64,000 bases of DNA from NCBI GenBank assembly GCA_964561155.1, contig CAZLOI010000001.1, forward strand, positions 302,759-366,758. Reading direction: 5' to 3'. Within the stretch, counting starts at the first letter, position 1, and every line of letters begins with the position of its first letter. The translations under genes and the position numbers were made by a program. Below the pieces are notes generated by a model, which ran no database searches, was not told the origin of the DNA, and worked only from the letters and a program-made list of their open reading frames with translations. Below, one piece after another: positions 2,785 to 32,984 of the stretch. Source of the DNA: an uncultured Candidatus Saccharibacteria bacterium (GTDB taxonomy: Bacteria > Patescibacteriota > Dojkabacteria > J137).

Positions 2785-5331
2785 ATGTCAAAGAACGTAA
2801 AGATAGGACAACACTACACAACAGATATCTTCTTTGATTTTAATAAGATAGATAATAAAACAGAAGGAGCTTTAGATAGCTTTGACTATAGCTTTGGAAA
2901 GATACTGAGGTACATATCATTTGGACTTGGAATAATACTTTCACTCCTTCTAGTTAGTGGCTACAGACTAAACGTATTGGTAGCATACAAACAAGATTTA
3001 CTTCTTTCTTTGCTAACAGGCATAGCAATCATGCTCTACATATACTCTTTGTACCTACTTAGAGACAAGGAATACTATACAAAGAAGAATAGTTTAGTAG
3101 CGCTAGATTTAAGAAGAGCTACCAAGGTACAGTTCGATGAATACTTTACATACGGAGTTACAAAGTTACTTAGAAACTCAGTTGAGGAGAAATCTACATT
3201 CTTGCTTAATGTGTTTAAGGAACTTGAGCACACTTCTGACTTTAAGAATGTTTTAGAATCAAGGCTAGGAGTACAGTGGGGTAGCTTTAAACAGAGATCT
3301 GAACTATATTTTTCATCAATTGATATAACGTTCAGAGGCAATATACTAAATCTTCTGAACAATCTATTTACAAACACTGTTCACTTTCAAGAAGAGCATA
3401 TAGATACAGACGTACTAATCTATACCTTTATAAAGATGCACTTAGGTAAGGTATTAGCAGAGTTTGGAGTAACCGATGTCGATTTAGAAGGTTTAAAACT
3501 ATATCAGCAGAACGTAATAAAGAAAAAAAGATACTACGAATCATGGAAGATACTTTCTCAGTTGAAACCTAAAGGAGATATCAATCGTTCATTCACATCC
3601 AGGGCAACACCTAGATTGGATGTATACGGGGAAGATCTAACAAGCAAATATTCAAAAGGAAACATTGAACTATCCATTGGTAGGGAAGAAGAGATTCGAA
3701 ACTTAATAAGAGTGCTAATGAAACCTGAAAATTCTAATGTATTGCTAGTTGGTGATCCAGGAACAGGTAAGACAAGATTCCTAAACTATCTTGCAACAAG
3801 AATGGTTGTTGAAGATATGCCTAAGAATTTGCAAGACTACAGACTAATTAAGCTGGACTTAAACAAAGTGTTTAATATGGCTCGTGGTGCTGATGAGTTT
3901 AAGATATTGCTTCAACAGTTATTCAAAGAAGTTGGTAGCTCTGGAAACATTATCCTAATTCTAGAAGAGATCACTTCAATACTAAACGTTAGAGAAGAAG
4001 CTAGGGTAGAAATTACAAATACGTTAATTGGATTAATCAAGAATTCTCAAATCAAGTTGATTGGTACTACGAATAGAAACAACTATAACAAGTTCATTAA
4101 GCCTAACAAGGCAATGGATAGTCAGTTCGAAGTTGTGAACTTTCCAGAACCAAGCAGGACAGTTACCGTTCAGATTCTCCTTGATGAAGCTAGTGATCTA
4201 GAAAAGAAATATGGAGTTACTGTTCAAGTTAACGTAATAAAACGAATAGTTGAGTTCTCTCCAAGAATTGATTCAGACAGATCGTTACCAGACAAGGCAA
4301 TTAGTCTACTGCAAGAAGGTTTGATACTTGCTCAAACACAGGATCTTAGAGTATTAAACGAAAGAACTATAGATGAACTTCTTTCTTCAAAGACTGGAGT
4401 TAAGGTAGGAGCTATATCTGAATCTGAAGTAGATAAGTTAAAGAAACTAGAAGAAGAGATGCATGGAAGAGTTGTTGGACAAGATGCAGCTATTAAGAGT
4501 ATCGCTATGGCTGTGAGACGTTCAAGAAGCGGGTTGAATGCAGATAATAGACCAACAGCATCATTCCTCTTTTTTGGTCCTACAGGAGTCGGTAAGACTG
4601 AATCTGCAAAAACTCTAGCAGATGTATATTTTGGGAACGAGAATCTACTTATAAGAGTTGATATGTCTGAATATCAGGAAGAAAGAAACCTAGAAAGGTT
4701 AATTGGTTACATTGATGAAAAAGGTAACTATCAAGGTGGTTTTCTAACTGAACGAGTTAGATCAAGACCATTTTCTTTGGTATTGCTAGATGAAATAGAC
4801 AAGGCAAACAAGAAGGTTCTAGATTTGTTTCTTCAAGTACTGGATGAAGGATACCTTACAGATGGTATGGGAAGAAAGACTGATTTTAGAAATACGATAA
4901 TCATCATGACAACCAATGCAGGTTCTTCGGAGATTGCTAAATCTACACAAAGTGGTGATGAGTATAAACAAACGTACGAGAAAGCATACGAAGTATTAAG
5001 AGATTCATTCAGAATAGAATTCTTGAATAGGCTTGATAAGATAATCATGTTTAAGTCATTAACGCTTATTGAAATTGAAAAAATTGTTGAGATAATGCTC
5101 TCTGAGTTTAGAGAGAAGTTATTAAGTAAAGGTATTGAACTAGAGTGGGATCAAGATACGTTACTTGGTTTAGCAAAGCTTGGTTACAACCCAGTGTTCG
5201 GAGCAAGAGAACTAAAGAGAGTTATTCAAGAAAATATTGAAGATCAGGTTGCTCAAGCAATCACAGAAGGTAAGATTCTTACAGGAGGCGATGTGAAGTT
5301 TGAAGGATTAAGCTTAGTTACAAAGGAATAG
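2785..5331 (+). CDS. Membrane-anchored Hsp100/Clp-family double AAA+ ATPase (ClpB/ClpV-like); no Clp_N domain, N-terminal 2-TM anchor instead
   Basis: D1 has Walker A LLVGDPGTGKT and an unusual Walker B LILEEIT (EE instead of DE). D2 has Walker A FLFFGPTGVGKT, Walker B LVLLDEIDKA and a sensor-2-like GARELKRVI. The N-terminal ~100 aa contain two hydrophobic helices (FGLGIILSLLLVSGY, LLTGIAIMLYIYSLYLL) in place of the Clp N-domain. No IGF/L ClpP-docking loop is obvious. Confidence 0.8.
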   Translation: MSKNVKIGQHYTTDIFFDFNKIDNKTEGALDSFDYSFGKILRYISFGLGIILSLLLVSGYRLNVLVAYKQDLLLSLLTGIAIMLYIYSLYLLRDKEYYTKKNSLVALDLRRATKVQFDEYFTYGVTKLLRNSVEEKSTFLLNVFKELEHTSDFKNVLESRLGVQWGSFKQRSELYFSSIDITFRGNILNLLNNLFTNTVHFQEEHIDTDVLIYTFIKMHLGKVLAEFGVTDVDLEGLKLYQQNVIKKKRYYESWKILSQLKPKGDINRSFTSRATPRLDVYGEDLTSKYSKGNIELSIGREEEIRNLIRVLMKPENSNVLLVGDPGTGKTRFLNYLATRMVVEDMPKNLQDYRLIKLDLNKVFNMARGADEFKILLQQLFKEVGSSGNIILILEEITSILNVREEARVEITNTLIGLIKNSQIKLIGTTNRNNYNKFIKPNKAMDSQFEVVNFPEPSRTVTVQILLDEASDLEKKYGVTVQVNVIKRIVEFSPRIDSDRSLPDKAISLLQEGLILAQTQDLRVLNERTIDELLSSKTGVKVGAISESEVDKLKKLEEEMHGRVVGQDAAIKSIAMAVRRSRSGLNADNRPTASFLFFGPTGVGKTESAKTLADVYFGNENLLIRVDMSEYQEERNLERLIGYIDEKGNYQGGFLTERVRSRPFSLVLLDEIDKANKKVLDLFLQVLDEGYLTDGMGRKTDFRNTIIIMTTNAGSSEIAKSTQSGDEYKQTYEKAYEVLRDSFRIEFLNRLDKIIMFKSLTLIEIEKIVEIMLSEFREKLLSKGIELEWDQDTLLGLAKLGYNPVFGARELKRVIQENIEDQVAQAITEGKILTGGDVKFEGLSLVTKE

Positions 5332-5344
5332 TTAAAACTAAATT

Positions 5345-5611
5345 ATGCTAGTACAAATACCAAACCTAAGTCAGATTGATACCTTACCTGAACTATTAAA
5401 CTTGTTGATTGGATTAACTCAAAGAGGTTTCTATCTAACATTTCTTTTGTTCCTAATGTATGGAGCATACATGTACATGGTATCAAGAGGTGATGAAGAG
5501 AAGGTTGTTAAGGCAAGAAACATTCTTGTATATGCAATTATAGGTTTTGTAATTGGAGTATTGGCAAACCCATTTTCACAAATTCTTCTTGGCATCTTGA
5601 ATCAAGGTTAA
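5345..5611 (+). CDS. Two-TM hairpin protein, paralog 1 of 7 (no signal peptide; starts directly with the mature-like VQIPN segment)
   Basis: The segment VQIPNLSQIDTLPELLNLL...SRGDEEKVVKARNILVYAIIGFVIGVLA aligns residue-for-residue with the mature part of the next ORF (VQIPNPTNIDSLEELINAV...AQGDDSKVEKAKKIIVTAIIGFVLAVLA). Confidence 0.6.
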   Translation: MLVQIPNLSQIDTLPELLNLLIGLTQRGFYLTFLLFLMYGAYMYMVSRGDEEKVVKARNILVYAIIGFVIGVLANPFSQILLGILNQG

Positions 5612-5698
5612 CTGCTACCGAACGAAGACACGTTAGAATATTCTAATATTGTTAACACTCCTTGCTCATTAGTATTTATTTGTATAGAATATCTTCAT

Positions 5699-6058
5699 AT
5701 GAAAAAATTCTATACAACTCTCGCAATATTATTCACTTACTTTTCAGCATTCGTTTCTCCTGTATTTGCTACAGGTGGTAGTTTTGTACAGATACCTAAT
5801 CCTACAAACATAGATTCACTAGAGGAATTAATTAATGCAGTAGCGAAGTTAATTGTTCCATTATTTATCCTAACTTTCCTTGCAATGCTTTTATTCGGAG
5901 CATTCACATACTTAACTGCACAAGGAGATGATTCAAAGGTTGAAAAAGCAAAGAAGATTATTGTTACAGCTATCATCGGTTTTGTATTAGCAGTCCTAGC
6001 TCCATCTATCGCTAACTTTGTTGCTAGTCTATTAGGAATCGAAGGGTTATCTTTCTAG
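5699..6058 (+). CDS. Secreted two-TM hairpin protein (VirB2/TrbC-pilin-like topology), paralog 2
   Basis: It has a signal peptide (MKKFYTTLAILFTYFSAFVSPVFATG), then TM1, a charged loop (QGDDSKVEKAKK) and TM2. It is homologous to ORFs 5345, 7263 and 7714. Confidence 0.7.
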   Translation: MKKFYTTLAILFTYFSAFVSPVFATGGSFVQIPNPTNIDSLEELINAVAKLIVPLFILTFLAMLLFGAFTYLTAQGDDSKVEKAKKIIVTAIIGFVLAVLAPSIANFVASLLGIEGLSF

Positions 6059-6059
6059 A

Positions 6060-6698
6060 ATGAAGAAAATATTTTTAGTCACTTTCTTGGTTATAGGATT
6101 CTTTGTAGCATTCCCTACAACAACGCATGCACTTACGGGAAATCCAAAAGCATGTGAGTCACCTGGTGATATACCCAATATCTGCAGAGACAACTATGCT
6201 CCTGATAATGCTTGTAATATTGCAAGAATTGCAAACCCTGAAATTGATTGCTGTATGAATTATTGTCCAGAGTTTCCGAGTACTAGGTACAATGCCGCTG
6301 GAGATTGTGCTTCAGGTAATGAAGCAGCCTGTGAAGCAGCAAGTGTATTCAGTAGCTTAAATATTTTTGGAACTAGGATTCAATATACTCCAGACAAGAT
6401 TCCTTCGTTAATTCAGTTAGCAATTTCCGCAGCGCTAGCAGTCGTTTCATTCTATGCATTATTTAGAGGAATGTTCCTATATGCAATTAAGAGACCTAAT
6501 ACAACAGATGCAGCAGAGGTTGCAAAGATTAATAAAGAGTTTGGAAACATTATTGTTGGGTTTGTACTAGCGTGGTCAGTGATATTTATAGTAGAGTTTG
6601 TTATGAGATTATTAGGGTTACCTTCATTGTCTCAGATTAATGTAAATACTTTAGATGATCCTGCAAATCCAGGTTCAAATGTAATTATTATTCAATAG
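6060..6698 (+). CDS. Secreted Cys-rich protein with a C-terminal two-TM hairpin, paralog 3 (divergent)
   Basis: It has a signal peptide, a ~70-aa ectodomain containing about 10 Cys (CESPGDIPNICRDNYAPDNACNIARIANPEIDCCMNYCPEF...), then two hydrophobic helices separated by the loop KRPNTTDAAEVAKINKEFGN. The topology matches its neighbours, but the GD[DE]xK motif is absent. Confidence 0.55.
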   Translation: MKKIFLVTFLVIGFFVAFPTTTHALTGNPKACESPGDIPNICRDNYAPDNACNIARIANPEIDCCMNYCPEFPSTRYNAAGDCASGNEAACEAASVFSSLNIFGTRIQYTPDKIPSLIQLAISAALAVVSFYALFRGMFLYAIKRPNTTDAAEVAKINKEFGNIIVGFVLAWSVIFIVEFVMRLLGLPSLSQINVNTLDDPANPGSNVIIIQ

Positions 6699-6699
6699 T

Positions 6700-7260
6700 A
6701 TGAAAAGATTAGGTCTAGGAATGATATTGGTATTGTTCTTGTACACCAAAGCAATGGCGCAGGGTATAGGAGATGTGGGAACAGAAGAGTGGGGATTACA
6801 AGCAATTAGGATTCCAATCTTTTCAACTTTGTTTACTGATCTTGCAAACTACAATACTGTTTTATCTTGGATTACATTCGCAGGAAGTATTATAGTTTCT
6901 GGTGTAGTTATCTACTGGATATACAAGATCTTAAGAGCTGGTATTCAAGCAATTCAAGCTGAAGGAGATGATGCAAAGATTACGGATGCTAGATTAAGAC
7001 TACAGGCAGCGTTGTCTGGAGTTGCATTCACTTTGTTGGTTCCAATAGTATTAAGCTTTGTAGGAGTTATATTTGGTTTTGGAACTATGTTCCAGTGGCC
7101 AAAGTCTTTCTCTGGATGTACGCAGCCTAATCAAGGAAATGAATTCTACCCACAATCAGAAGGAGGTTACCAGTATTATTTCCAAGCTTTTCTTCAGGAA
7201 GGAAGTGAAGAAGCTGCTACAGCTGTATGTAACCCAGTTGATGCAAACTTAGATAGATAA
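6700..7260 (+). CDS. Secreted two-TM hairpin protein, paralog 4
   Basis: It has a signal peptide (…KAMAQG), then TM1, the loop AIQAEGDDAKITDARLR, and TM2. The C-terminal tail contains two Cys. Confidence 0.65.
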   Translation: MKRLGLGMILVLFLYTKAMAQGIGDVGTEEWGLQAIRIPIFSTLFTDLANYNTVLSWITFAGSIIVSGVVIYWIYKILRAGIQAIQAEGDDAKITDARLRLQAALSGVAFTLLVPIVLSFVGVIFGFGTMFQWPKSFSGCTQPNQGNEFYPQSEGGYQYYFQAFLQEGSEEAATAVCNPVDANLDR

Positions 7261-7262
7261 AT

Positions 7263-7622
7263 ATGCAAGACGACTCACTATGCGGTATTGTTGGATGTGA
7301 TATTAATCAAGGAGAGAACTATCTTCTTAACTTGGATAATATTGTTCAGACAGGTCTAACTGTTTTGTTCTCTTTGATAATTATCTATGGAATATTCATG
7401 ATTATCAAAGCTGTTGTTAAGATTATTTCTAGTGAAGGAGATGAAGGGAAGCTTGAGTCTGGATTGAAAAGTATTCGTGGAGTTTATTACGGTGTTGTCA
7501 TTATATTCGTAGGATTAATAGGATTGGTAATAATCTTTGCTTTGTTTAATGTAACAGAGCTTCCTGATAATGTAGATCTTCCAGGAGGAGATGGCGGAGT
7601 AATAACCGACCCTTTCAACTAG
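7263..7622 (+). CDS. Two-TM hairpin protein, paralog 5
   Basis: TM1 (LTVLFSLIIIYGIFMII), the loop KIISSEGDEGKLESGLKSIRG, then TM2. It is about 50% identical to ORF 7714 across the hairpin. Confidence 0.65.
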   Translation: MQDDSLCGIVGCDINQGENYLLNLDNIVQTGLTVLFSLIIIYGIFMIIKAVVKIISSEGDEGKLESGLKSIRGVYYGVVIIFVGLIGLVIIFALFNVTELPDNVDLPGGDGGVITDPFN

Positions 7623-7713
7623 AGTAAATCTTCTAGCCTTATTGTCTTTTGGTCTTGTATCTTCTAATAATTTCTAATAGAATAGGTTAAATACATATTA
7701 AGAAAACTATATT

Positions 7714-8166
7714 ATGAAGAAATTCTTCGCAACGCTTTTTGTAATGTTCTTTGCTGTTACACCATTTATAGCTCCTGTAGCACATGGTCAAAATCTAATC
7801 TGTAGAGTATTTCCATTCATTGAACAAATTAAGGCTTTTGGAGTAGATGCTTTATGTGGAGGATTAACTTCAGAGGGACCAATCGATTCTGCTAGATCAC
7901 TAGTTCAAGTAGGATTAAACTTAGTATTTGTTGGTATTATCATCTTAGCAATCTTTATTATTGTTAAGGCTGCTATCAACTATATTAGATCAGAAGGAGA
8001 CGAGGACAAGATCAAGAGTGCAAACAAATCTATCAAAGCTGTATTTACTGGTATCATTGCATTATTCGTAGGAATTATCGGTATTATATTAGTTCTTGCT
8101 ATATTCAATGCTACAGAAGTAGTTCCAAATGAACTACCAGATGAGTTAGACGTACTTAATGAATAG
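7714..8166 (+). CDS. Secreted two-TM hairpin protein, paralog 6
   Basis: It has a signal peptide (…APVAHGQ) and two Cys in the N-terminal ectodomain, then TM1, the loop NYIRSEGDEDKIKSANKSIKA, and TM2. The acidic C-terminal tail matches that of ORF 7263. Confidence 0.7.
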   Translation: MKKFFATLFVMFFAVTPFIAPVAHGQNLICRVFPFIEQIKAFGVDALCGGLTSEGPIDSARSLVQVGLNLVFVGIIILAIFIIVKAAINYIRSEGDEDKIKSANKSIKAVFTGIIALFVGIIGIILVLAIFNATEVVPNELPDELDVLNE

Positions 8167-8172
8167 TAATGA

Positions 8173-8886
8173 ATGAAGATTTGTGCATTTCTAATAATAG
8201 GAATCATATTCCAATCTCTTACAAGTCCTGTTGTCGCACAAACACAGGACTTTGATTTTTCAGGCAATAATCCTGACTCCTACCAGTGCTTCGATGGAAG
8301 CGGACAACCAGATACCACATCAAATATTGTAAAAGATGAGTTACGGGGATTCTTTTTCTGCGATACGAATAATAATGGCTTCTATAATGCTGGTGAAGAA
8401 CAAGCAGTTTTAAGGCCTCCAAGGCTTCAGCAAATTGAAGTCTGGTTCGTAAGAATCATTTATGTGGTTTGGGCACTAGTTGGAGCATACTCGTTCTATC
8501 TTCTAGTAGTTCTTGGATATCAGGTAATGATCTCTCGAGGAGACCCAACATCCCTACCAAAGATTAGACAAAGAATTATTAACTACATGATTGGTTTTGC
8601 TTTAGTATTTCTAGCTATTCCAATATTAGATACGTTCTTTAGACTGCTTGGTATAAATAAAACAGTCAGCTGTTACGATGTTCAGATGCCTGGGTTCCAA
8701 TTCTTCTTTACAACACTATGTAGCGGTACAGATCCTTGTTCCTTCACTGCAGCTCAGCTAGCAGATGGTATTGTATGTCCGATCAGGAATGAAAGGAGAG
8801 CATGTGATACTGGTGCCCAAGGAGAATTTGAAATCTTCCTTTGTGACCCAGAAGCCCAGATTTGGACAAGTATAGGAACTCAATAG
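8173..8886 (+). CDS. Secreted Cys-rich protein with a central two-TM hairpin, paralog 7 (largest ectodomains)
   Basis: It has a signal peptide (…SPVVAQT) and an N-terminal ectodomain with two Cys, then TM1, the loop MISRGDPTSLPKIRQR, and TM2. The C-terminal ectodomain carries 7 Cys (SCYDVQMPG…LCSGTDPCSF…VCPIRNERRACDTG…FLCDPE). Confidence 0.6.
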   Translation: MKICAFLIIGIIFQSLTSPVVAQTQDFDFSGNNPDSYQCFDGSGQPDTTSNIVKDELRGFFFCDTNNNGFYNAGEEQAVLRPPRLQQIEVWFVRIIYVVWALVGAYSFYLLVVLGYQVMISRGDPTSLPKIRQRIINYMIGFALVFLAIPILDTFFRLLGINKTVSCYDVQMPGFQFFFTTLCSGTDPCSFTAAQLADGIVCPIRNERRACDTGAQGEFEIFLCDPEAQIWTSIGTQ

Positions 8887-8887: not shown

Positions 8888-10390
8888 ATGAACCTAAAAC
8901 TAAAGTCATATAAAATTAATGACGATGTGTACATCGGTGACTATTCTGTATTAAAAACTTCAGACTCATTCATCGCATCCCTTAGAAACCTAGATACCTC
9001 AATATCAGATTCATCAACACATACAATTGAACTAGATATCAATGGCACTATCTGCACGATTACAAAACTTGATGAAACAATAACTGTAATATTCAATGAT
9101 GCTTCATACACTTCTTTAAACGAACTATTCCAGACTGAATTTAAAACTAACTTTAATTCAAATACTTGGAAAGAGCATTTCCTAGATATAAATGAATCAG
9201 GTATTTCTGATGTTGCTTCCTTTAATACATTCTTGTCTGGATTAACAAAGGAAGTTGTTGATACCAATGCACCAAAAAAAGAATTAGATAACCTAATATT
9301 ACAAAGCTTGGAGTCCGCAACAGATGAAAACAAGAAAGCATTGCAACGCTTTCAGGAGTTAACAGCAAAGATTTATACATCTGAAGAAAAAGTGGATGTA
9401 TACAACAACTATCAAAGTATTGTTAAAGCAAAGAAGGAGGAAAAGGATTCAATCCTGAGAGAGAAGGAACGATTGGTACAAGTACTATCTAGTTCAAAAG
9501 AGTTAATCGAATCAAAGGCGAGACTGGAGAATGAAGTTAACGTTGTATTGGAAGGGTCTGATCCTGAAGTACTTAAGAATACAATCACACAAGTTAAAGA
9601 TACTAGAATGAATCATCTTGTAAACTACATGCAAGAAGTGAAAGGTCAACACAAGTACGATGCTGAAGAGAAGGAAAGAGATTTGATGGTACCAAAAGCT
9701 TTTATAGTTATTCTACTAGTTCAATCGCTGGTATCCATTTCTTTGTTCTTTGTAACAGGGGATGTAATAGCGTTTATGTATTTGATTCTTGGTTGGATCC
9801 TAGCAATAGGTGGTGGGATTCTATTTCAAATCTATGCATACGATACAATAGCAGCTCAATTTGATAGCTCAGATGAATCTCAAGATACAGCTCCAAAGCC
9901 ACGAAGAGAATTCACGCTTAAGGTAGATGAGACACAAGACAAAGATTTAATAAAACATGCGTGGGTTGAAGCACTAAGAAGAGATCTACAAGAAGTTGTG
10001 AGTTCATTAAACCAAAGACTTGGCTCTATGACATACGAGGAACTTCAAGATAGGATGAAAGAGTTAGAAACAAAGGGAGTATTATTAGATGAAGAGATAA
10101 AAAAGCTTGATGGAGAGAAGATCGATCAAGATGATTACTATAAATTTAGAAGAGAATTAGATATCTATAGTATCGAAAGAGAGAATCTGCTGGTCAATTT
10201 GGAAGGAAAAGTAGACAATGGACTAATAGAGAATATAAAATATAGTATTAGCCGAATTTCTGACGCCAAGAAAGTTTCAGAAACAAAGCAAATAAAGTTG
10301 CCCTTTATTATTTTTAACCTTAAGGAAAAAGTAGCTTGGATAAAAGATTTACAGGTACAAAACAGTACTCAAGTATTGTTCTTCGAATAA
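8888..10390 (+). CDS. Coiled-coil membrane protein (500 aa) with a central 2-TM hairpin flanked by cytoplasmic coiled-coil domains
   Basis: Hydrophobic helices sit at about aa 272-320 (AFIVILLVQSLVSISLFFVTG / FMYLILGWILAIGGGILFQIYAY). The flanks are rich in heptad-like E/K/L repeats. No catalytic motif was found. Confidence 0.55.
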   Translation: MNLKLKSYKINDDVYIGDYSVLKTSDSFIASLRNLDTSISDSSTHTIELDINGTICTITKLDETITVIFNDASYTSLNELFQTEFKTNFNSNTWKEHFLDINESGISDVASFNTFLSGLTKEVVDTNAPKKELDNLILQSLESATDENKKALQRFQELTAKIYTSEEKVDVYNNYQSIVKAKKEEKDSILREKERLVQVLSSSKELIESKARLENEVNVVLEGSDPEVLKNTITQVKDTRMNHLVNYMQEVKGQHKYDAEEKERDLMVPKAFIVILLVQSLVSISLFFVTGDVIAFMYLILGWILAIGGGILFQIYAYDTIAAQFDSSDESQDTAPKPRREFTLKVDETQDKDLIKHAWVEALRRDLQEVVSSLNQRLGSMTYEELQDRMKELETKGVLLDEEIKKLDGEKIDQDDYYKFRRELDIYSIERENLLVNLEGKVDNGLIENIKYSISRISDAKKVSETKQIKLPFIIFNLKEKVAWIKDLQVQNSTQVLFFE

Positions 10391-12156
10391 CAGCAATATT
10401 CCTCATTGCTATCATTTCAGTTAGCCCTGTATGGGCTAGAAGTTCTACAGAAATTGGACAAGACATTATCAACAAACAAAGAGAGATTGAAGAGAACGAA
10501 CGAAGGCTAGCTGAATCTGCTGCTAATAGACAAAGATACGAAGCAGATGCAGCAAGTCTTCAGGAAGGTGTACCTCAACTAGAGGCTCAAATTAAACAAC
10601 TCGAAGAAGAGTTGAATGGTATTAAGCTTGAAATTAGTATTCTTGAACAGGAACAAGCTCTAAAGGAACTGGAAAGAGAACGAACTCAGTTTAATCAGAA
10701 TCAAACGATTAAGGGTTCATACATGGACTGGAAGAGTACAAGTCATGATGTGCGAATGTTTGTAGATGAAGATGTAGAGTTTAATAGGATACAGCAGTAT
10801 CAATCTGCAATTGCGGGAAACAATAAAGTAACTATAGATAACCTAACAGGGGAATTGATAAAGATAGATGGTCAAATGTCAGTATTAAGTCAAAAGAAAG
10901 CTGACTTAGAAGTTAAAGAAGCAGAAGTTCAGGAACAAAAAAGACAACTAGAAGAAACATTGGCTCGGTTAAGATGGGGAATAAGCTACGAAGCAGGAAA
11001 TCTTGCGGCTATAGATAACTCGATTAAGCAAGCTAGACAAGATATCGATCTACTATCCGCAGAGCAACAAGCTGCAATGGCAAGAGAGCAGGAGATCTTA
11101 CAGAATAACCCGGGTGTTGAAAACTCAGCTGGTTGCGATGGAGCAGTAGCTGGAAGCAATAGTTTCTACTTCTGTGGAAATGGACGAGATTTGTATCAAG
11201 GACACGGTGTAGGTATGAGTCAATATGGAGCTAAAGGTGCTGCAGAGCAGGGTGCGAGTGCTGTTTCGATAGTAGAGTTCTATTATCCTGGAGCGGTTGT
11301 TACAACAATAGCTGAACCTGCAGAAATCTCAATTAAATACTGCCAAGGAAACCCAGGTTTAGCTCCCTATCAAGAAAACTGTTATTACGGAGGTAACTAC
11401 TACGGTCCTGTTATAACTGAAAGAATTAGCTTTATCGACTACCTCGGTGGATTGGGTGAAATGCCATACAGTTGGCCAGTTGAGGCAAGAAAAGCTCAGA
11501 TGATTGCAGCTAGAACATACGCACTTAAAAGAACTAATAACGGAGATCCTAATTACCCAATCTGCCTAACATCATACTGTCAGGTATCGTATGTAAAAAA
11601 TGGTCAGACTCATGAAAGACAGTTAGCGATAGATACTCAAAACCAAGTTCTAATGTATGGCGGAGTTTTAATTGATGCTTTGTATTCTGCAGACAATAGT
11701 CAGAATAACGGTACAGCAGATTACGATACAAGATTTCAAAACGTATATGGTCAAGCAAACGGTAATTATCCATACCTAAGATCAGTAAATGATCAAGGTT
11801 GGGCATGGAATTCAAGAATGTACTATTTCCAGTATTGTGGTTCACATGCATGCGGACTATGGCCATGGAAAACAAGGACGTATTCATATGCAGAATTTGA
11901 TAATTTCTTAACGTGGGTTGGAAATAACTTGTATTGGGAGTTCGGTACTGCAAAAAATGCAGTAGGAAATACAAATTATATTAACTTCGAACGAGATGCA
12001 TCTGGTAGAATTAAGAAGATTTTAATATATGGTACAAATGGATCATATACTCTAGGAGGATGGTGGTTCAAGAACGCATGGATATCTTGGGTAGCATCGA
12101 CTGGAACATATGACTATATATACAGTCAGACTTTAAACGTAGTACAGAATAACTAA
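10336..12156 (+). CDS. Secreted/anchored coiled-coil protein with a C-terminal SpoIID/LytB-type cell-wall lytic domain
   Basis: N-terminal hydrophobic signal/anchor (ITAIFLIAIISVSPVWA), ~230 aa of coiled coil, then the SpoIID-family hallmarks GHGVGMSQYGAKGAA and ALYSADNSQNNGTADYDTRFQNVYG...YPYLRSVND. The annotated start overlaps the preceding ORF by 55 nt, so the true start may be downstream. Confidence 0.75.
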   Translation: MDKRFTGTKQYSSIVLRITAIFLIAIISVSPVWARSSTEIGQDIINKQREIEENERRLAESAANRQRYEADAASLQEGVPQLEAQIKQLEEELNGIKLEISILEQEQALKELERERTQFNQNQTIKGSYMDWKSTSHDVRMFVDEDVEFNRIQQYQSAIAGNNKVTIDNLTGELIKIDGQMSVLSQKKADLEVKEAEVQEQKRQLEETLARLRWGISYEAGNLAAIDNSIKQARQDIDLLSAEQQAAMAREQEILQNNPGVENSAGCDGAVAGSNSFYFCGNGRDLYQGHGVGMSQYGAKGAAEQGASAVSIVEFYYPGAVVTTIAEPAEISIKYCQGNPGLAPYQENCYYGGNYYGPVITERISFIDYLGGLGEMPYSWPVEARKAQMIAARTYALKRTNNGDPNYPICLTSYCQVSYVKNGQTHERQLAIDTQNQVLMYGGVLIDALYSADNSQNNGTADYDTRFQNVYGQANGNYPYLRSVNDQGWAWNSRMYYFQYCGSHACGLWPWKTRTYSYAEFDNFLTWVGNNLYWEFGTAKNAVGNTNYINFERDASGRIKKILIYGTNGSYTLGGWWFKNAWISWVASTGTYDYIYSQTLNVVQNN

Positions 12157-12794
12157 TGAATCCAAATACACCACAAGACAACAAGAAACTTGAGATGATC
12201 AAAAAGATGGATCAGATAGTGCCAAAAGCATCTGGAGGTTTCTTTGGTTCTGTTCAATACAGACCTAATATGAGTTTCGAAGGCCAGAACAGGAACGAGA
12301 AGGTCTATATTATGGCAAGAAGACACTGGTTAACAAATGTAGGGTGGATTATAAATAATGTCATTTATATAATGCTACCGCTTCTAGTTGGATTACTATT
12401 TAATGTATTCGATCCAAAGCTACCACCAGTAAATGGTCAAGTTTTCTCAGTTCTTGTACTTGGATATTATTCATTGGTATTTACAAATATCTTTAAGAAC
12501 TTTGTAGATTGGTATTTTGATATATATTTTGTAACTAACGAAAGAGTTATGGATGTTATCTTTAAGCCATTCGCTTCGTATCAAATTGAAGAGATTCCAT
12601 TGAATAGTATTGAAAGTGTTAGAGAGAAGACTCCTGGAGTTTTGGCTGCAATATTCAATTTTGGAAACATTACAATTACAACTGAAGCCCATGACAGATC
12701 AATGGTATTCCCTTATATTTCAAAACCTACAAAGGTTCGCGATATTATTTCAGACTTAGCATTTGTTGCTCGAACATTTAACAATGGAAATTAA
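12156..12794 (+). CDS. Membrane protein with 2 TM helices and a bacterial PH (bPH_2/YdbS-like, DUF304) domain
   Basis: Two hydrophobic helices (LTNVGWIINNVIYIMLPLLVGLLF; VFSVLVLGYYSLVFTNIF) are followed by DWYFDIYFVTNERVMDVIFKPFASYQIEEIPLNSIESV, which is typical of membrane-flanked bPH domains. Start codon overlaps the stop of the previous gene (ATGA). Confidence 0.55.
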   Translation: MNPNTPQDNKKLEMIKKMDQIVPKASGGFFGSVQYRPNMSFEGQNRNEKVYIMARRHWLTNVGWIINNVIYIMLPLLVGLLFNVFDPKLPPVNGQVFSVLVLGYYSLVFTNIFKNFVDWYFDIYFVTNERVMDVIFKPFASYQIEEIPLNSIESVREKTPGVLAAIFNFGNITITTEAHDRSMVFPYISKPTKVRDIISDLAFVARTFNNGN

Positions 12795-13002
12795 CACATC
12801 AACAGTATTCAGTTTCTTAAAAATATTTGCGATTGTAATCGCATTATTTCATTTGCTTGCTGGGTTATATGTTACTAGGCAAGTAACAAGAATGAATAAA
12901 ATAGTTAAGACTAGAAATGGACCTTTCATATTATTAGTAGCCCTAGCATACATAATCGTACTGCTGTTAGTACTTCTACTAATAATCTCGATACAGGTTT
13001 GA
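12763..13002 (+). CDS. Small 2-TM membrane protein (79 aa)
   Basis: Two strongly hydrophobic helices; overlaps the end of the bPH gene, suggesting operon coupling. Confidence 0.4.
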   Translation: MLLEHLTMEINTSTVFSFLKIFAIVIALFHLLAGLYVTRQVTRMNKIVKTRNGPFILLVALAYIIVLLLVLLLIISIQV

Positions 13003-13031
13003 GAAATTTTCAAAATTCTATATACTAAGGT

Positions 13032-15794
13032 ATGGCAATTAAAGCAGACTTTATAACAGGTAAGCAATCGTTCGGCAACTGGGCAGGGGTTTACGCCTTT
13101 GTACCTGAATCTGGAGAGAGCAAGGAAATGTTCGTTTCTATACGAATATCCGTAGAGAGTGACGAATTTAATTTAGAAAATGCAGGAAAACTTCTTTTAG
13201 ATGAACTTCAAGGTATATATTTCTCAGACAAAAAAGCATATTCAGATCAGGTGAATAGACTTGAGAATGCATTGTGGAAGATGAAGGGAAAGATGGACTA
13301 CATTCTTTCGAAGGAACAATCCTTAATGGAGAAAGGTTTAGATATAGAACTTGCTGTGTGTGTTTATGATGATGTCTTTGCATATACTGCGGTTATAGGT
13401 GAAAGCAAGATAAAGATCTATAGAGAAGAAAAGTTAATAGATATTTCAGACGCATTGTCAGACGCTGCTAATTCAGGTTTCTTTAAAACAGGAAGCCTAG
13501 AATTGGATCCAGAAGACAGAATATTCCTAATCACATCTAAAGCTGCTAGAGAATTCTCTGACAAAGAGATTGAAACAGGAGCTAGGTTACTTGATTTAGG
13601 TAGATTAAGAGCAAGCTATCCTGATTCATCAGAAGGTACTGCTGCTGTAATGATATACAAGGAAGGAGCTACTGCATTAGCTGTTGAAGAGAATATACAA
13701 GCTAATGATCAAGGTATGCAAGCTACGCAATCAGTGGATGGAGCATCAGAAGATAGGAAAATGGATGGTGGCACATATGGAGATCAGAATATTTCTTCAG
13801 GGGCAACAGAAGCTGTATCTCAAACAGTATCTGAAGTAACAACAATAGCTATGATGGGAGAAAAGGCTAAGCAGTTCTCAAGAGTTGCAAAGACTAATCT
13901 TGTTAAAGCAGGTAACTTTACAATAGGAAAACTAAAAGTATTTAGAAACAAAGTAGAGGATTATAGAAACAAGAGAAATGGAGTAGCAATGAATGATGAG
14001 TCAATTAACGATGAAGAAGTAATGTCAAATGATATGGGAGATGAGATTGAACCAGTTGCTCAGAGAGTAAGCAATACTGTTGCACCACAACTTTCAGATT
14101 CAAGATTCTATGACGAGTCAGAAGACGAGATGGAACAACCAGTTGTAGCACCTGTTCAGAATATGGAAACACCAGTGCAAGACTTTGAACCAGAATACGA
14201 TACAGAAGGCAATTTGATTCCACAGTACAAGCCATTCAAGGATGAAGAAGAAGATCTTTCTGTTAACGAAGTTAATTCGGACACAGAGGAAATATACGAT
14301 GATGTTTACGAAGAAGTGCAAGATGAACCAGTAGCTCAATTTGGAGCTAGTACTATGAGACAAAGCCAAAAGGCTCCACAAGGCAGTAGATTCGATAGTG
14401 TAAAGGGAAGCTTTAATAATGTAAACAAAGAGAAATTATCAGGAATAGTTGCCAAGGCTTTAGACTTACTAAAGAGACTTGGAAGTATGCTTTTGGAATT
14501 AACTCTTTGGTTAATTGAGTTATTCAAGAAAGAAATACTAGGTGTTGGTGAGAATAGACGCGATAGATTGTCTAGAGCAAAGAGAAGAAGAAGAAACAGA
14601 ATCATATTAGTTGCTGTAGTAATTATCTTGTTCTTAATAATAAGTAATTCGATTAGAACAGCACAGGATGCTAGATTCCAACAGGAACTATTAGATACAG
14701 CAAGAACAAAGGTATCTGAATTCCAGAATACACATACTTCACTAGATGCAAACATTCAAACAGCAAAGGCTTCGGGCGATGTAGCAATTCAGAATCTAAT
14801 TGCAGACTTTGATAGATTGAACGCAGAAGTTAATGTACAAAAGAGAGAAGGTTTATTAGAAGAAGAGTTCACAACAATTCAGAACGATATTCAATTCTCT
14901 AAAGATGAGCTACTAGATATTATCGCTATCCTAACACCTCAGGTATTGGTAGATGTTGGTAGAAGCTACCCAGACGCAAATCTTGCAGACATTGAATACT
15001 CAAATGGAGGTATCTTTATTAGTGACCAAGGAAGAAACGTTATCTACAGAGTAGGTACAGCATCTTTAAATGGTGTTGCTCAGAGCTTTGTTACTGGATT
15101 AACTCAACCATATGCTCTAGTTAGAAATGTAGATGGAGACATTGTTTTCTATGACAACGATACTACTTCAGCACTTGGTATTGTAGATTATGAATCTGCG
15201 GAAGTTTCTAGAATGCCAGGTTTAACTCCAAGTAGTATAGGAAGAGTTACTGAATCTGCGCTATATACAGGAAATGATTCTTTATATGAAGTTCGAAATT
15301 CTACTACTCAGATCTTTAAAAGAGACAAGAGTGGTTCTGGATATGTAAATGGCGGAGCAACTCAATCAGGAGACTTTAATTCAAACTGGAGAGTAGATTC
15401 TGATTTTGCTAACGCAGTAGACATAGCAGCACCTTACGAAATCTATATGCTGATCAAGGGTCAAGGTATCAAGAGATATTTTGCTAGAGAAGCAAACACA
15501 CTAACATCTGATCTATTCAGTAACATATCTCAAACAGATCTAGCTGCTGTACAGAATGCTAACTCGATGGATGCAGTCGATTCATTCGTAGCTGTTGGAG
15601 ATGCAGCAAACAAGAGAGTGCTACTATTTACAATAGACGATACTCCTCAGAAAGGATTAACTCTTTTCAAGCAATTCGTATATCGAGGATCTGAAAATGT
15701 ATTCAACGATCTAGATGAAGTTGTAATCGTTCCAAGCGAAAGTTCAATCTACGTTCTTGATAACCTAAAGGTTATCAAACTACCACTTCAATAA
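13032..15794 (+). CDS. Large single-pass membrane protein (920 aa): cytoplasmic N-domain (possibly PP2C-like), acidic linker, TM, extracytoplasmic beta-propeller-like C-domain
   Basis: The TM lies at about aa 525-545 (RIILVAVVIILFLIISNSI) after a basic RRRRNR stop-transfer. The C-terminal 380 aa carry repeated blade-like motifs (GIFISDQGRNVIYRV, DIVFYDND, SLYEVRNS, NKRVLLFTIDD, SSIYVLDNL). The N-terminal 230 aa (…ELAVCVYDDVFAYTAVIGESKIKIY…DRIFLITSKAAREFSD) weakly recall the PP2C/SpoIIE fold. Confidence 0.55.
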   Translation: MAIKADFITGKQSFGNWAGVYAFVPESGESKEMFVSIRISVESDEFNLENAGKLLLDELQGIYFSDKKAYSDQVNRLENALWKMKGKMDYILSKEQSLMEKGLDIELAVCVYDDVFAYTAVIGESKIKIYREEKLIDISDALSDAANSGFFKTGSLELDPEDRIFLITSKAAREFSDKEIETGARLLDLGRLRASYPDSSEGTAAVMIYKEGATALAVEENIQANDQGMQATQSVDGASEDRKMDGGTYGDQNISSGATEAVSQTVSEVTTIAMMGEKAKQFSRVAKTNLVKAGNFTIGKLKVFRNKVEDYRNKRNGVAMNDESINDEEVMSNDMGDEIEPVAQRVSNTVAPQLSDSRFYDESEDEMEQPVVAPVQNMETPVQDFEPEYDTEGNLIPQYKPFKDEEEDLSVNEVNSDTEEIYDDVYEEVQDEPVAQFGASTMRQSQKAPQGSRFDSVKGSFNNVNKEKLSGIVAKALDLLKRLGSMLLELTLWLIELFKKEILGVGENRRDRLSRAKRRRRNRIILVAVVIILFLIISNSIRTAQDARFQQELLDTARTKVSEFQNTHTSLDANIQTAKASGDVAIQNLIADFDRLNAEVNVQKREGLLEEEFTTIQNDIQFSKDELLDIIAILTPQVLVDVGRSYPDANLADIEYSNGGIFISDQGRNVIYRVGTASLNGVAQSFVTGLTQPYALVRNVDGDIVFYDNDTTSALGIVDYESAEVSRMPGLTPSSIGRVTESALYTGNDSLYEVRNSTTQIFKRDKSGSGYVNGGATQSGDFNSNWRVDSDFANAVDIAAPYEIYMLIKGQGIKRYFAREANTLTSDLFSNISQTDLAAVQNANSMDAVDSFVAVGDAANKRVLLFTIDDTPQKGLTLFKQFVYRGSENVFNDLDEVVIVPSESSIYVLDNLKVIKLPLQ

Positions 15795-16910: not shown

Positions 16911-19358
16911 ATGTTTAGCTCAGCCGTAATCGGAAATATTCTTATTGTATTCTTAATACTAGTTCTAGCCGGTGTTATTATCTTCAGCTTGTATTCCTGG
17001 CTCTTGACCGAATTAAAAGAAAGAGTCTTAATGGACAAGTCTTTAAACCTAGTATTCTACGAAGTTAGACTAGCAAGAAACAGCGAAGTAGAGATAAAGG
17101 CTATGGAACAGTTGTTCTCAGGACTAACTGGATTCTCTGAAGATCTTAAAGGAATGAAAGGGTTCATAGGAGCTAGAACTTTTGTAAGTTTTGAACTCGT
17201 CGCATATTATCAAAGTATTAGATTCTACGTAGTTTGTCCTAAAAAGATATCAAGTGTTGTTGATAGATTAATCAACGGAACATACCCTAGTGCTGAGATA
17301 ATGAAAGTTAAAGAGTATAACTTGTTCCCTGATCAGGGAAGTGTTTCATACGCTAGTTTGGAAGTAGACAAGGATTGGAAGATACCATTTCAAACATATG
17401 AAGAACTACCAGTAGATAGTTTGGCTACCCTTACAGATGTAATGAGTAAGCTAGGACCAGGTGAAAGTGCTGCTTTCCAGATTGTAATTGCTCCAGCAGG
17501 AGGAGACTGGATTAAATCATCAAAGGAATATGCAAAGAAGATTAGAGAAGATGCGCAGCCAAAGACTGCAAAGGAAGGAGAGCCTGCACCTAAACCTGCA
17601 AAACAGAAGGTGCCAGATGAGACTCTTTCATTAATTGAACGTAAAGCTGAGAAGAATGGTTTCTATACAGATCTTCGTGTTGTAGTTTGTTCTCCGGACA
17701 AGTTTTCTGCAGACAATCATATGACCAATATATTAAGTACCTTCGATCAGTTCTCAAAGATTGGAGGAAGCAAGCTTAAGAAGACCAAAGACAAGAACAA
17801 ACTAAAGACGATATCTAGAGATTTTATATACAGGCTGCCAAGGAACAAGATGGTTTTGAATGCAACGGAGCTTGCAACACTGTACCATTTCCCAAGCAAG
17901 AGTATTCAGGCTCCACATATTAAATGGTTGTTGTCCAAGAAGCTACCTGCTCCTGACTTCACTACAAATCAGTGGGAGAAGGACTATATGTATATTGGAA
18001 AGAATACTTTCAGAGGATCGGAGAAAGAGATATTCTTAAAACCTGATTCAAGACTTAGACACTTCTATATAATCGGACAAACTGGTTCTGGTAAGTCTGG
18101 TTTCATGCTTTCCATGATGGTTAGAGATATTAAGATGGGACATGGTTGTGCATATATAGACCCACACGGATCAGATGCAGAGAAGATATTGCAGCAGATT
18201 CCACCAGAGAGAATAGAGGATGTGATTGTTTTTGATCCATCAGATATCGAAAGACCTATGGGTCTTAATATGTTGGAATTTAAAACTCCTGCACAGAAGA
18301 CTTTGGTTACCAATGAGATGCTTAATATCTTTGATAGTTTGTATAACCTAAAGGTTACTGGAGGACCTATGTTCGAGCAGTACTTTAGATATGGAATCAT
18401 GCTTTTAACAGAGGATGAGGAATCGGGATCAACTCTTCTAGAGATACCTAAGCTATTCGCGGATGAAGGCTACAGAAACTATAAACTATCTAAGTGTAAG
18501 GATCAGGAAGTTATAGACTTCTGGAGAAAGCAGGCAGAGGCAGCCGGAGGAGAAGCTTCCCTTAAGAATATTGTTCCATACGTTGTTTCAAAGCTTGCTC
18601 CTTTCTTAACTAACGCATATCTAAGACCTATTGTTGCTCAACAGAAATCTACTTTAGATTTCAGAGAGATTATGGACAACAAGAAGATTCTAATTGCAAA
18701 ACTTTCTAAAGGACGTATTGGAGAGATGAATGCAAATCTTCTAGGTATGATCTTAATTGGTAAGTTACTTGTTGGAGCGCTAGAGAGAGACGAGATTCCA
18801 GAGGATGACCGTATTCCTTTCTATCTATACATCGACGAGTTCCAGAACTTCTTAACAGATGGTATCCAGATTATTCTTTCTGAGGCTAGAAAATACAAGC
18901 TTTCCCTAACCATCGCTCACCAGTTCCTTGGTCAACTAACAAGACAGGGTGGAGATACAAAGATTAAGGATGCTGTTTTTGGTAACGTTGGTAACAAGGC
19001 TATTTTCAGAGTTGGAGAGGAGGATTCACCGTTCCTAAGGAAAGTATTGGATGGAGAATTGGAGGAATCAGATCTACAACAGATTGAAAACTTAATGGCT
19101 TTTGTAAAGATTCAGGTTGATGGGAAACCAACTCCTGCTTTTACGCTCACAGCGAGATATGGGGAGTCTCCATACGATATGATGTCAGAACCCAACCCAC
19201 AGCTTTCTAACCTCATTAAGCAGGTCTCTAGGCTCAAATATGGCAAGGATGCATCTCTTGTAGAGAATGAAGTTAAGTTAAGGGGTAGTTTCATTAAAGA
19301 GAAGACAGAGGAAACCAAGAAACCAGGAGGAATGTTTGGTGGGTTCCCAGGATTTTAA
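16911..19358 (+). CDS. T4SS-type P-loop ATPase, VirB4/TrbE/CagE-like (alternatively VirD4/TraG-like), with an N-terminal TM anchor
   Basis: An N-terminal 28-aa hydrophobic helix is followed by a Walker A at about 48% of the length (HFYIIGQTGSGKSG) and a Walker B with downstream Gln about 245 aa later (PFYLYIDEFQNFL…EARKYKLSLTIAHQFLGQL). The size (815 aa) and the Walker A position fit VirB4 better than VirD4. This is a motif-memory assignment; no search was run. Confidence 0.65.
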   Translation: MFSSAVIGNILIVFLILVLAGVIIFSLYSWLLTELKERVLMDKSLNLVFYEVRLARNSEVEIKAMEQLFSGLTGFSEDLKGMKGFIGARTFVSFELVAYYQSIRFYVVCPKKISSVVDRLINGTYPSAEIMKVKEYNLFPDQGSVSYASLEVDKDWKIPFQTYEELPVDSLATLTDVMSKLGPGESAAFQIVIAPAGGDWIKSSKEYAKKIREDAQPKTAKEGEPAPKPAKQKVPDETLSLIERKAEKNGFYTDLRVVVCSPDKFSADNHMTNILSTFDQFSKIGGSKLKKTKDKNKLKTISRDFIYRLPRNKMVLNATELATLYHFPSKSIQAPHIKWLLSKKLPAPDFTTNQWEKDYMYIGKNTFRGSEKEIFLKPDSRLRHFYIIGQTGSGKSGFMLSMMVRDIKMGHGCAYIDPHGSDAEKILQQIPPERIEDVIVFDPSDIERPMGLNMLEFKTPAQKTLVTNEMLNIFDSLYNLKVTGGPMFEQYFRYGIMLLTEDEESGSTLLEIPKLFADEGYRNYKLSKCKDQEVIDFWRKQAEAAGGEASLKNIVPYVVSKLAPFLTNAYLRPIVAQQKSTLDFREIMDNKKILIAKLSKGRIGEMNANLLGMILIGKLLVGALERDEIPEDDRIPFYLYIDEFQNFLTDGIQIILSEARKYKLSLTIAHQFLGQLTRQGGDTKIKDAVFGNVGNKAIFRVGEEDSPFLRKVLDGELEESDLQQIENLMAFVKIQVDGKPTPAFTLTARYGESPYDMMSEPNPQLSNLIKQVSRLKYGKDASLVENEVKLRGSFIKEKTEETKKPGGMFGGFPGF

Positions 19359-19957: not shown

Positions 19958-20031
19958 TAGGCCCAGGTGGACTCGAACCACCGACCCCAGCTTTATAAGA
20001 ACTGTGCTCTAACCACCTGAGCTATGGGCCT
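19958..20031 (-). tRNA. tRNA-Ile with anticodon UAU (decodes AUA)
   Basis: Reverse complement folds as AGGCCCA/TGGGCCT acceptor, D arm GCTC-AGGTGGTTA-GAGC, anticodon stem CAGTT/AGCTG, loop CUUAUAA, T arm GGTGG-TTCGAGT-CCACC, discriminator A; no encoded CCA. The D arm is identical to the ITS tRNA-Ile(GAU). Confidence 0.75.
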
Positions 20032-20082
20032 TTGTCCCGAAATTATATCAAATGGAAGGGGAATATTACATTAAGAAATATA

Positions 20083-30914: not shown

Positions 30915-31160
30915 CACTTCACACTTATCTTAAAGCAATTTAAGAAGTGCTAAACAATTATCCCAAACAATAAATTGAACTTTTAAAAGTGATAAGGAAC
31001 GTCAAGTTTTCTTTGAGTTTAATCTAAACTCTTGTAAACGTTCTGTTTTGGAATCGACAGAATGTTATTCCAGAAATACTAAGCAATTAGTTATTTCTAA
31101 ATTATTCCGCTATTAAATTAGCAAACTTAAATATGGAATCTCGATTTATCGAGATGAAAT

Positions 31161-32684
<1,524 letters not shown>

Positions 32685-32915: not shown

Positions 32916-32984
32916 TTTAATTATAGGAGGGGTCAAGTAAGGAACACGAGCAATTTGCTCGAAACGGCCTACTAGCCGTTTCTC

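Follow-up and report, generated by a model that had tools for sequence, protein, structure and literature searches.

Arrays of genes for VirB2-like pilins are a described feature of Patescibacteria. In a 2025 survey of 3,035 patescibacterial genomes with the Pfam families PF18895 and PF04956 (Quinonero-Coronel et al., PMC12102498), an array was taken to be at least two VirB2-like genes, in tandem or one gene apart and of low mutual identity, and 441 arrays of 2–11 pilin genes were recorded, with a mean identity of 25% and a maximum of 54%. VirB2-like pilins were found in 1,948 VirB4-bearing assemblies and lay near virB4 in 1,135 of them (∼58%). In S. epibionticum, strain ML1's type IV secretion system (T4SS) cluster corresponds to SEML1_0006-0019, and the pilin series within it is essential (Wang et al. 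2023, PMC10633639); a 2025 review (PMC12857230) counts six VirB2-like pilins in this organism, for which a pilus was not shown. Here we describe an array in a 64,000-nt stretch of DNA from an uncultured Candidatus Saccharibacteria bacterium of the GTDB Dojkabacteria lineage (contig CAZLOI010000001.1, positions 302,759 to 366,758; hereafter the window, G+C ∼36%). It consists of seven adjacent genes whose products share a mean core identity of 21% and a maximum of 45–50%, in agreement with the array definition of the survey. The locus is a further example of the kind already described and not a discovery. What it adds is modest: positional orthology of the members, cysteine modules, a strain-level indel of a leaderless copy, a Dojkabacteria-specific neighbourhood and, in other arrays, poly-pilin fusions.

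As in S. epibionticum and N. lyticus TM7x (‘Sec secreted array’), the genes are chromosomal, tandem and co-oriented and encode PF18895/VirB2-like proteins. Their number (6+1) lies within the range of 2–11, S. epibionticum likewise having six, within-array identity is similarly low, and no relaxase was seen near the array, as in the other patescibacterial arrays. A first-pass annotation of the window, made from the letters alone, had spoken of far more paralogs than usual, which is true in comparison with classical T4SSs but not for Patescibacteria, where 2–11 is normal (PMC12102498). Unlike in S. epibionticum, the array is not beside virB4; it follows the gene of a membrane-anchored Clp/Hsp100 ATPase and is part of a block specific to Dojkabacteria. 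The seven open reading frames (ORFs), with lengths in amino acids (aa) and transmembrane helices abbreviated as TM, are:

ORF1, 5345-5611, + strand: 88 aa; extra VirB2-like hairpin paralog without signal peptide.
ORF2, 5699-6058, + strand: 119 aa; signal peptide, QIPNP lead, TM1, AQGDDSK turn and TM2, making up a minimal pilin that is free of Cys.
ORF3, 6060-6698, + strand: 212 aa; signal peptide, ∼80-aa N-terminal ectodomain with 8 Cys, hairpin with diverged loop.
ORF4, 6700-7260, + strand: 186 aa; signal peptide, hairpin (AEGDDAK), ∼50–60-aa C-terminal tail with one conserved Cys pair.
ORF5, 7263-7622, + strand: 119 aa; no signal peptide, acidic N-terminal tail with conserved CxxxxC, hairpin (SEGDEGK).
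ORF6, 7714-8166, + strand: 150 aa; signal peptide, ∼25-aa ectodomain with conserved Cys pair, hairpin (SEGDEDK).
ORF7, 8173-8886, + strand: 237 aa; signal peptide, N-terminal ectodomain with one Cys pair, hairpin (SRGDPTS), C-terminal module of ∼70 aa with six conserved Cys.

Each of the seven products contains two long, strongly hydrophobic helices flanking a short charged segment, so that the first-pass description of seven consecutive ORFs with a common two-TM hairpin holds. MAFFT placed all seven in register over ∼88 residues, in the order lead segment, TM1, the motif [S/A]-x-G-D-[D/E]-x-K, and TM2 with a conserved G-[FV]. The six loop strings that had been quoted (SRGDEEKV, AQGDDSKV, AEGDDAKI, SEGDEGKL, SEGDEDKI and SRGDPTSL) are exact; the loop of ORF3, KRPNTTDAAEV, is diverged and keeps only the invariant Asp of the motif. 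By BLASTP, identity amounts to 50% between ORF1 and ORF2 (86 aa, E 1e-23) and to 41.7% between ORF5 and ORF6 (108 aa, E 1e-19), in line with the two paralog pairs singled out previously, and the remaining pairs reach 22–37%. No long DNA repeats joining the array copies were found and the copies are therefore diverged at the nucleotide level, as had also been proposed. When a hidden Markov model (HMM) of the core was run against the 242 ORFs of the window, its only matches were the seven array members. Since this model is exclusive to the seven, and since the ortholog profiles described below match each other and PF18895, we judge the similarity among the sequences not to be due to chance.

From ORF2 to the bPH gene downstream of the array, consecutive genes overlap or are 1–6 nt apart, with the exception of one 91-nt gap; the array's own spacers of 1–6 nt (one of 91 nt) imply that it would be co-transcribed. 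A promoter scan of the region gave nothing above shuffled controls, and a terminator scan was uninformative on the operon limits. A 38-nt near-perfect palindrome (19+19 nt) is present at 5680-5717, centred on the ORF2 start codon. It is the same in a closely related strain (L001) but is not retained in more distant relatives, and is therefore probably not a conserved regulatory element.

In order to place the proteins in known families, they were compared with Pfam profiles at the gathering cutoffs (26.6 bits for PF18895, T4SS_pilin; 27.9 bits for PF04956, TrbC/VirB2). As single sequences, ORF1 (33.0 bits) and ORF2 (52.7 bits) score above the PF18895 cutoff, ORF7 (20.2 bits), ORF3 (16.3 bits) and ORF5 (11.9 bits) score below it, and ORF4 and ORF6 give no match. 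The array thus differs from PF18895 in that five members fall under the cutoff as single sequences, and its host is a monoderm; the ORF7 ortholog of one relative (L005) has a recorded PF18895 match. Against PF04956, ORF2 scores 19.7 bits (E 1e-3, under the cutoff) and the other six ORFs do not match. Five of the seven ORFs match NCBIfam NF045849 (the Mbov_0395/MMCAP2_0565 family) over the hairpin, all below its cutoff of 40, with 15.0–30.4 bits for four ORFs and 12.9 for ORF5. This family, the pilin-like protein of Mycoplasma integrative and conjugative elements (ICEs), is alike in being a VirB2-like hairpin in a T4SS of a wall-less or monoderm bacterium, but it is a single gene in ICEs and is associated with conjugation.

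A profile built from the seven cores retrieved 85 matches from 5.8 billion proteins, of which 60 belong to PF18895, 7 of these also to PF04956. The other matches are unannotated proteins of 69–160 aa, and the 27 of them that were aligned resemble ORF5/ORF6. Among 1.84 billion cluster representatives the same profile found 36,990 at E ≤ 1e-3, and the hairpin family, as delimited by this profile, is therefore very large. For array positions 3–7, profiles of ortholog groups from nine genomes were aligned by hhalign with a set of independent PF18895 proteins (alignment A4), none of which comes from these positions. The probabilities over the hairpin core, which membrane-protein composition can raise, were 97.1–98.5% (E 5e-11 to 2e-15; ORF3 97.2%, ORF4 97.5%, ORF5 97.1%, ORF7 98.5%), and 99.9% for position 5 against position 6. 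Against the chains of the PDB, the family profiles gave only chance matches at the sequence level.

An AlphaFold2 model of ORF2, based on 56 homologs, has an overall pLDDT (predicted local distance difference test score) of 82.9 and consists of a signal-peptide helix followed by a hairpin of helices 41–72 and 78–111, with values of ∼90–96 in the hairpin. The charged loop had been put at ∼15 aa: the hydrophilic stretch does have this length, but the modelled turn comprises ∼5 residues and the remainder is the start of helix 2. The helical-hairpin fold superposes on solved conjugative pilins; filament-forming conjugation pilins are the best structural matches of the models and occupy ranks 1 and 2 for the ORF6 model. 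The archaeal conjugation (Ced-type) pilins of Aeropyrum pernix (8dfu) and Pyrobaculum calidifontis (8dft) share this simple two-helix fold, but they come from another domain of life and are only 8–12% identical, with no match at the level of sequence. Also, classical VirB2, which with TrbC and TrwL exemplifies the conjugative pilins of PF18895 and PF04956, is without the disulfide-rich N- or C-terminal extensions of 50–100 aa seen in several members here.

Lys and Arg cluster in the loop, between flanks that are acidic on either side, in agreement with the positive-inside rule, and all conserved Cys pairs fall in predicted outside segments. This placement of charges and cysteines fits a predicted N-out/loop-in/C-out arrangement, which is the topology of VirB2. 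Signal peptides with n-, h- and c-regions and small residues at -3/-1 were detected in five of the seven ORFs (predicted cleavage at VFA↓T, THA↓L, AMA↓Q, AHG↓Q and VVA↓Q), and we infer that these five members are cleaved. The first-pass annotation had correctly denied a signal peptide to ORF1 but had assigned one to all the remaining copies; ORF5 has none either. The close orthologs of ORF5 in three relatives (L002, L005 and L006) also lack a signal peptide; the ortholog in a fourth, L009, carries one, and other longer, distant orthologs probably do so as well.

Taken together, these comparisons make it very probable, as far as sequences and models can tell, that all seven proteins are members of the VirB2-like pilin family, and the assignment is secure in that homology, fold and topology jointly underlie it. 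The resemblance to VirB2/TrbC-type pilin sets proposed earlier is thereby supported. Of the outcomes named there as counting against it, none occurred: model and charge distribution both show the hydrophobic stretches acting like a TM hairpin, signal peptides with predicted cleavage sites are present, and the HMM from the seven found mostly PF18895. No holin or PrsW family appeared in the Pfam or NCBIfam scans or among the 85 profile matches. Two other kinds of pilin were considered and rejected. Type IV pilus pilins carry a class III leader (G-1, F/M+1, E+5) and a single N-terminal helix; the leader is absent from all seven proteins, which form two-TM hairpins. The Pam pili of the Candidate Phyla Radiation (CPR) are built from Ig-like donor-strand pilins of an unrelated fold.

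The composition of the array was then compared among related genomes. Close homologs of ORF2 come from metagenome-assembled genomes (MAGs) of Candidatus Dojkabacteria. A scan of one genome per species for ORF7 orthologs returned eight loci, all from Dojkabacteria or from MAGs labelled ‘uncultured Saccharibacteria’, with six pilin-like genes in six loci and seven in the other two. By best-hit analysis, every one of ORF2 to ORF7 is matched one-to-one, in all eight loci, by an ortholog occupying the corresponding position. The orthologs are 60–79% identical to those of L002 and 42–59% to those of L005, compared with the mean of 21% among paralogs, and across wider related genomes the orthologous pilins are ∼30–64% identical to those of the window. 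In the two relatives tested, nonsynonymous divergence (dN) was far below synonymous divergence (dS); dS is saturated and dN/dS values would be unreliable, so that only this inequality is used. The earlier view that the duplications are ancient and maintained agrees with these data.

The cysteines are position-specific. Counted over nine orthologs per position, Cys 42, 52, 64 and 69 of ORF3 are kept in all nine and Cys65 in eight, and complete conservation was found for C140 and C177 of ORF4, C7 and C12 of ORF5, C30/C48 of ORF6 and eight Cys columns of ORF7, whose core is the most conserved of positions 3–7 (65%). Cys-rich modules had been ascribed to ORF3, ORF7 and the tail of ORF4; this is correct for the first two, but ORF4 has a single Cys pair, and the pairs of ORF5 and ORF6 had gone unmentioned. 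Because one-to-one orthologs carry position-specific Cys patterns, the array, judged from these comparisons, is old and of fixed composition, and its members are not interchangeable copies.

These data bear on the possibility that the paralogs form a variation repertoire, that is, a set of alternative major pilins from which one is used at any time, or for a given host strain, to evade immunity or defence or to switch host range. Such a role has been proposed for the VirB2 arrays of Bartonella and Anaplasma and suggested for Patescibacteria (PMC12102498). Bartonella and Anaplasma phagocytophilum resemble the present case in the tandem amplification of virB2 in a host-associated bacterium, and antigenic or host-range variation is the presumed purpose of their arrays (cited in PMC12102498); here, by contrast, the members differ in architecture, and their positions are held by fixed orthologs whose dN is far below dS. 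Copy number does vary at the array edge, ORF1 differing between near-identical strains and L006 having an extra first copy, position 6 is duplicated in L009, and conservation is somewhat lower in the ecto-segments than in the cores, all of which would suit a repertoire. Strict one-to-one orthology at ∼30–64% identity, position-specific cysteines and the excess of synonymous change are, on the other hand, the opposite of diversifying turnover; DNA repeats that could serve recombination or cassette switching were not found, and spacers of 1–6 nt imply co-expression. We consider a repertoire improbable.

The duplication in L009 (L009:8569-9843) is a tandem one, and in the second position-6 copy the signal peptide is followed by a long N/G/S-rich insert of low complexity; the duplication shows that copy number changes within the array too and not just at its edges. 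ORF1 illustrates change at the edge. It starts 13 nt past the stop codon of the ClpB-like gene, as noted before, and its N-terminus, MLVQIPN, starts some four residues past the point at which mature ORF2 would begin (TGGSFVQIPNP). Strain L001, whose flanks are 94–97% identical, is without the ∼300 nt that hold ORF1 (window 5343-5643 versus L001:3994-4030), and no obvious direct repeats were seen at the junctions. An ORF1 ortholog is absent from most relatives. Its nearest relative is the extra first copy of L006, which has a signal peptide, in a weak grouping in which the ORF1 branch is long, and among ∼15 billion proteins ORF1 is a singleton cluster. ORF1 is a strain-specific extra copy without signal peptide, and the best reading of it is that this leaderless gene evolves fast and is either accessory or in decay; the suggestion that it may be degenerate fits its absence from strain L001 and its long branch. 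Like ORF5, it may insert into the membrane without a leader.

Additional evidence on how the hairpins might be used came from arrays elsewhere. The strongest matches of the hairpin profile (P0100, P0104, P0111 and P0147) are proteins in which 3–8 VirB2-like modules follow one another behind one signal peptide, the turn of the modules reading S/T-x-GDEE-x-A-x-x-AK. One such ‘poly-pilin’, of six modules, is encoded at L017:1777-3435 within an array of four single PF18895 genes. Poly-pilin fusions are not mentioned in those parts of the literature on patescibacterial pilin arrays that we drew on; the portions of PMC12102498 and PMC10633639 used here likewise do not describe positional orthology, Cys modules or gain and loss of a leaderless copy. 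The fusions argue for side-by-side use of the hairpins, and hence also against a repertoire expressed one member at a time.

With these data in mind, the reading that we favour, if only somewhat beyond an even chance, is that a heteromeric T4SS pilus or conduit is formed by ORF2, as the major pilin, and by ORF3 to ORF7, as specialised subunits. Export would be by Sec and cleavage by signal peptidase I, with ORF5 and ORF1 inserting leaderless, and the hairpins would be stored in the membrane with both termini outside and the loop inside. Their extraction, and their polymerisation into a pilus or a short conduit reaching the host cell, would then fall to a T4SS whose VirB4 would be encoded elsewhere in the genome. 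In solved conjugative pili the inter-helix loop lies on the lumen or lipid-facing side, and the GD[D/E]xK turn could line the same side here. Its minimal architecture, the lack of Cys, its place at the head of the conserved array and the highest conservation make ORF2 the likely major subunit. ORF3 to ORF7, whose N- or C-terminal modules would be stabilised by disulfides and point outwards at the surface, are likely to be non-redundant minor or specialised subunits acting in initiation, at the tip or in adhesion. Co-assembly is preferred over a one-at-a-time repertoire because of the fixed orthologous positions, the spacing of the kind seen in co-transcribed genes, the lack of recombination substrates and the fusions found elsewhere. 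That the proteins co-assemble into one heteromeric filament with ORF2 as its major subunit is, in our estimation, an evenly balanced proposition.

The elements of interest around the array are:

2785-5331, + strand: membrane-anchored Clp/Hsp100 double-AAA+ ATPase (Pfam AAA, AAA_2, ClpB_D2-small).
8888-15794, + strand: downstream block of five tightly spaced or overlapping genes, defined by Pfam, NCBIfam and TM predictions.
16911-19358, + strand: VirD4/TraD-like coupling-protein-type ATPase of 815 aa (Pfam TraG-D_C, DUF87).

Several observations weigh against a T4SS pilus. Among the ORFs scanned, which included every ORF of at least 400 aa in the 64 kb, no homolog of VirB4, VirB3, VirB6 or TrsD was detected, and none was found in the ±10-kb flanks of the related loci; the array is thus not encoded together with VirB4 and other mating-pair-formation genes within the window. 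Monoderm T4SSs are normally without a pilus, no VirB2-type filament has been reported for any Patescibacterium (PMC12857230), and the filaments seen by electron cryomicroscopy in Ca. M. amalyticus are made of the unrelated, Ig-like Pam pilins. The T4SS coupling protein (T4CP) of S. epibionticum is not essential (PMC12102498). Finally, the proposed division into a major and minor subunits is inferred from conservation and architecture.

The 815-aa protein is the sole T4SS-type ATPase of the window and lies 8 kb downstream of the array. It has one N-terminal TM helix and a Walker A motif at residue 389, gives partial NCBIfam matches to TraD and to CD1115 VirD4-like proteins and a weak PDB sequence match to DotL, and occupies the same position in related loci (62–88% identity). 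We considered whether it could be VirB4 and rejected this, as its matches are to TraD/VirD4-type families.

The same observations raise the possibility that the hairpins form no filament at all and that they are small subunits of an envelope complex which do not leave the cytoplasmic membrane, for example in a translocon or channel collar or as partners of the membrane proteins encoded nearby. The name ‘pilin’ would then denote the family and nothing more. In addition to the lack of a nearby VirB4 here and in relatives, the absence of pili from monoderm T4SSs and of VirB2-type filaments from the phylum, and the identity of the filaments solved in a CPR bacterium, this explanation draws on two arrays of other Patescibacteria, with 6 and 9 PF18895 genes, which follow a gene for a solute-binding protein and have neither a Clp-like ATPase nor a T4SS gene within 10 kb. 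Because of these two cases, arrays far from virB4 are not unusual. However, the best structural matches of the models are filament-forming pilins, the conserved disulfide-bearing outside modules are more easily explained by exposure at the surface, a pilin gene does lie near virB4 in 1135 of 1948 assemblies (PMC12102498), and the S. epibionticum series is inside the T4SS cluster (PMC10633639). On balance we regard a purely membrane-resident role as unlikely.

The gene directly upstream of the array suggests another alternative. The Clp/Hsp100 ATPase, a divergent paralog, carries two N-terminal TM helices (segments at 38–92) in place of Clp_N and Walker A motifs at 323 and 598; the spacing of these two motifs is ClpA-like, without an M-domain, and the protein scores far under the ClpB, ClpA and ClpV equivalog cutoffs. 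By inspection, it has no obvious IGL/IGF ClpP-binding loop. Its D1–D2 linker is ∼60 aa shorter than that of the window's canonical ClpC-like gene at 38512-40998. In every Dojkabacteria-type locus that reaches far enough upstream it stands directly in front of the array, and from its position and sequence we consider it a conserved upstream neighbour and a candidate accessory factor.

The products of the downstream block are a TM/coiled-coil protein of 500 aa, a cell-wall protein with a SpoIID/LytB domain, a bPH protein, a 2-TM protein of 79 aa and a single-TM protein of 920 aa, and the genes are spaced at 1, -55, -1, -32 and 29 nt. The order 106-aa TM protein, Clp/Hsp100 ATPase, array, 500-aa protein, SpoIID, bPH, 79-aa protein and 920-aa protein is conserved and continues with SmpB, a 188-aa protein and the 815-aa VirD4/TraD-like ATPase in all Dojkabacteria-type loci. 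The 500-aa protein (8888-10390, + strand), with a coiled coil and a TM hairpin, and the 920-aa protein (13032-15794, + strand), with one central TM helix, belong to no Pfam or NCBIfam family and, like the SpoIID/LytB-domain protein, are always found downstream of the array. Both might span the envelope as partners of the hairpins or be analogues of VirB6/VirB8/VirB1.

By analogy with ClpV, which recycles the sheath of type VI secretion systems, the Clp/Hsp100 ATPase might extract or recycle the hairpins in a machine that is independent of VirB4 and that would also include the SpoIID-type wall enzyme and the large downstream membrane proteins. The gene order from the 106-aa to the 920-aa protein, kept in all Dojkabacteria-type loci, the unusual architecture of the ATPase (TM helices instead of Clp_N, no M-domain and no evident IGL/IGF loop) and the presence of a canonical ClpC-like paralog elsewhere in the window are compatible with such a machine. 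Yet synteny in the lineage extends over all of the region between GroEL and SmpB and the T4CP, and since it includes housekeeping genes, the adjacency of the ATPase and the array may be inherited gene order. Arrays in other classes are without this neighbour, a search with the N-terminal 300 aa of the ATPase returned no usable homologs, and two Dojkabacteria assemblies are scored VirB4 ‘Yes’ in the part of Table S1 of PMC12102498 consulted here. We therefore consider a VirB4-independent machine highly improbable.

A stronger form of the favoured heteromeric assembly was also considered, in which the six fixed positions are obligatory, non-interchangeable subunits of a ‘six-pilin’ T4SS pilus or conduit, served in Dojkabacteria by a dedicated membrane-anchored Hsp100 rather than, or besides, VirB4. 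If this were true, the surface modules would be locked by disulfides and the poly-pilin fusions would be a covalent version of the same assembly. We know of no such design in classical T4SSs, which make do with a single VirB2 and a tip of VirB5, and we regard this proposal as doubtful.

Two further features of the window lie beyond the VirD4-like ATPase. At 19958-20937, a tRNA-Ile(TAT) is followed by a minus-strand gene of the tyrosine-recombinase (phage-integrase) family, which could be an XerC/D-like housekeeping gene or mark the edge of an integrated element. The region of ∼31000-36100 contains an rRNA operon (G+C 45–47%) with tRNA-Ile and tRNA-Ala in the spacer, and the short minus-strand ORFs at 34888-36028 are probably spurious.

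The only Patescibacterium that is genetically tractable cannot grow as an epibiont without the T4SS and its pilin series (PMC10633639, PMC11665869). The present locus leaves this picture of the T4SS unchanged and sharpens a question that can be tested. Orthologs kept at each position with their own disulfide pattern, together with fusions in other lineages, favour a multi-subunit assembly over a variation repertoire, and the membrane-anchored Hsp100 ATPase directly upstream would be a candidate accessory factor worth testing.

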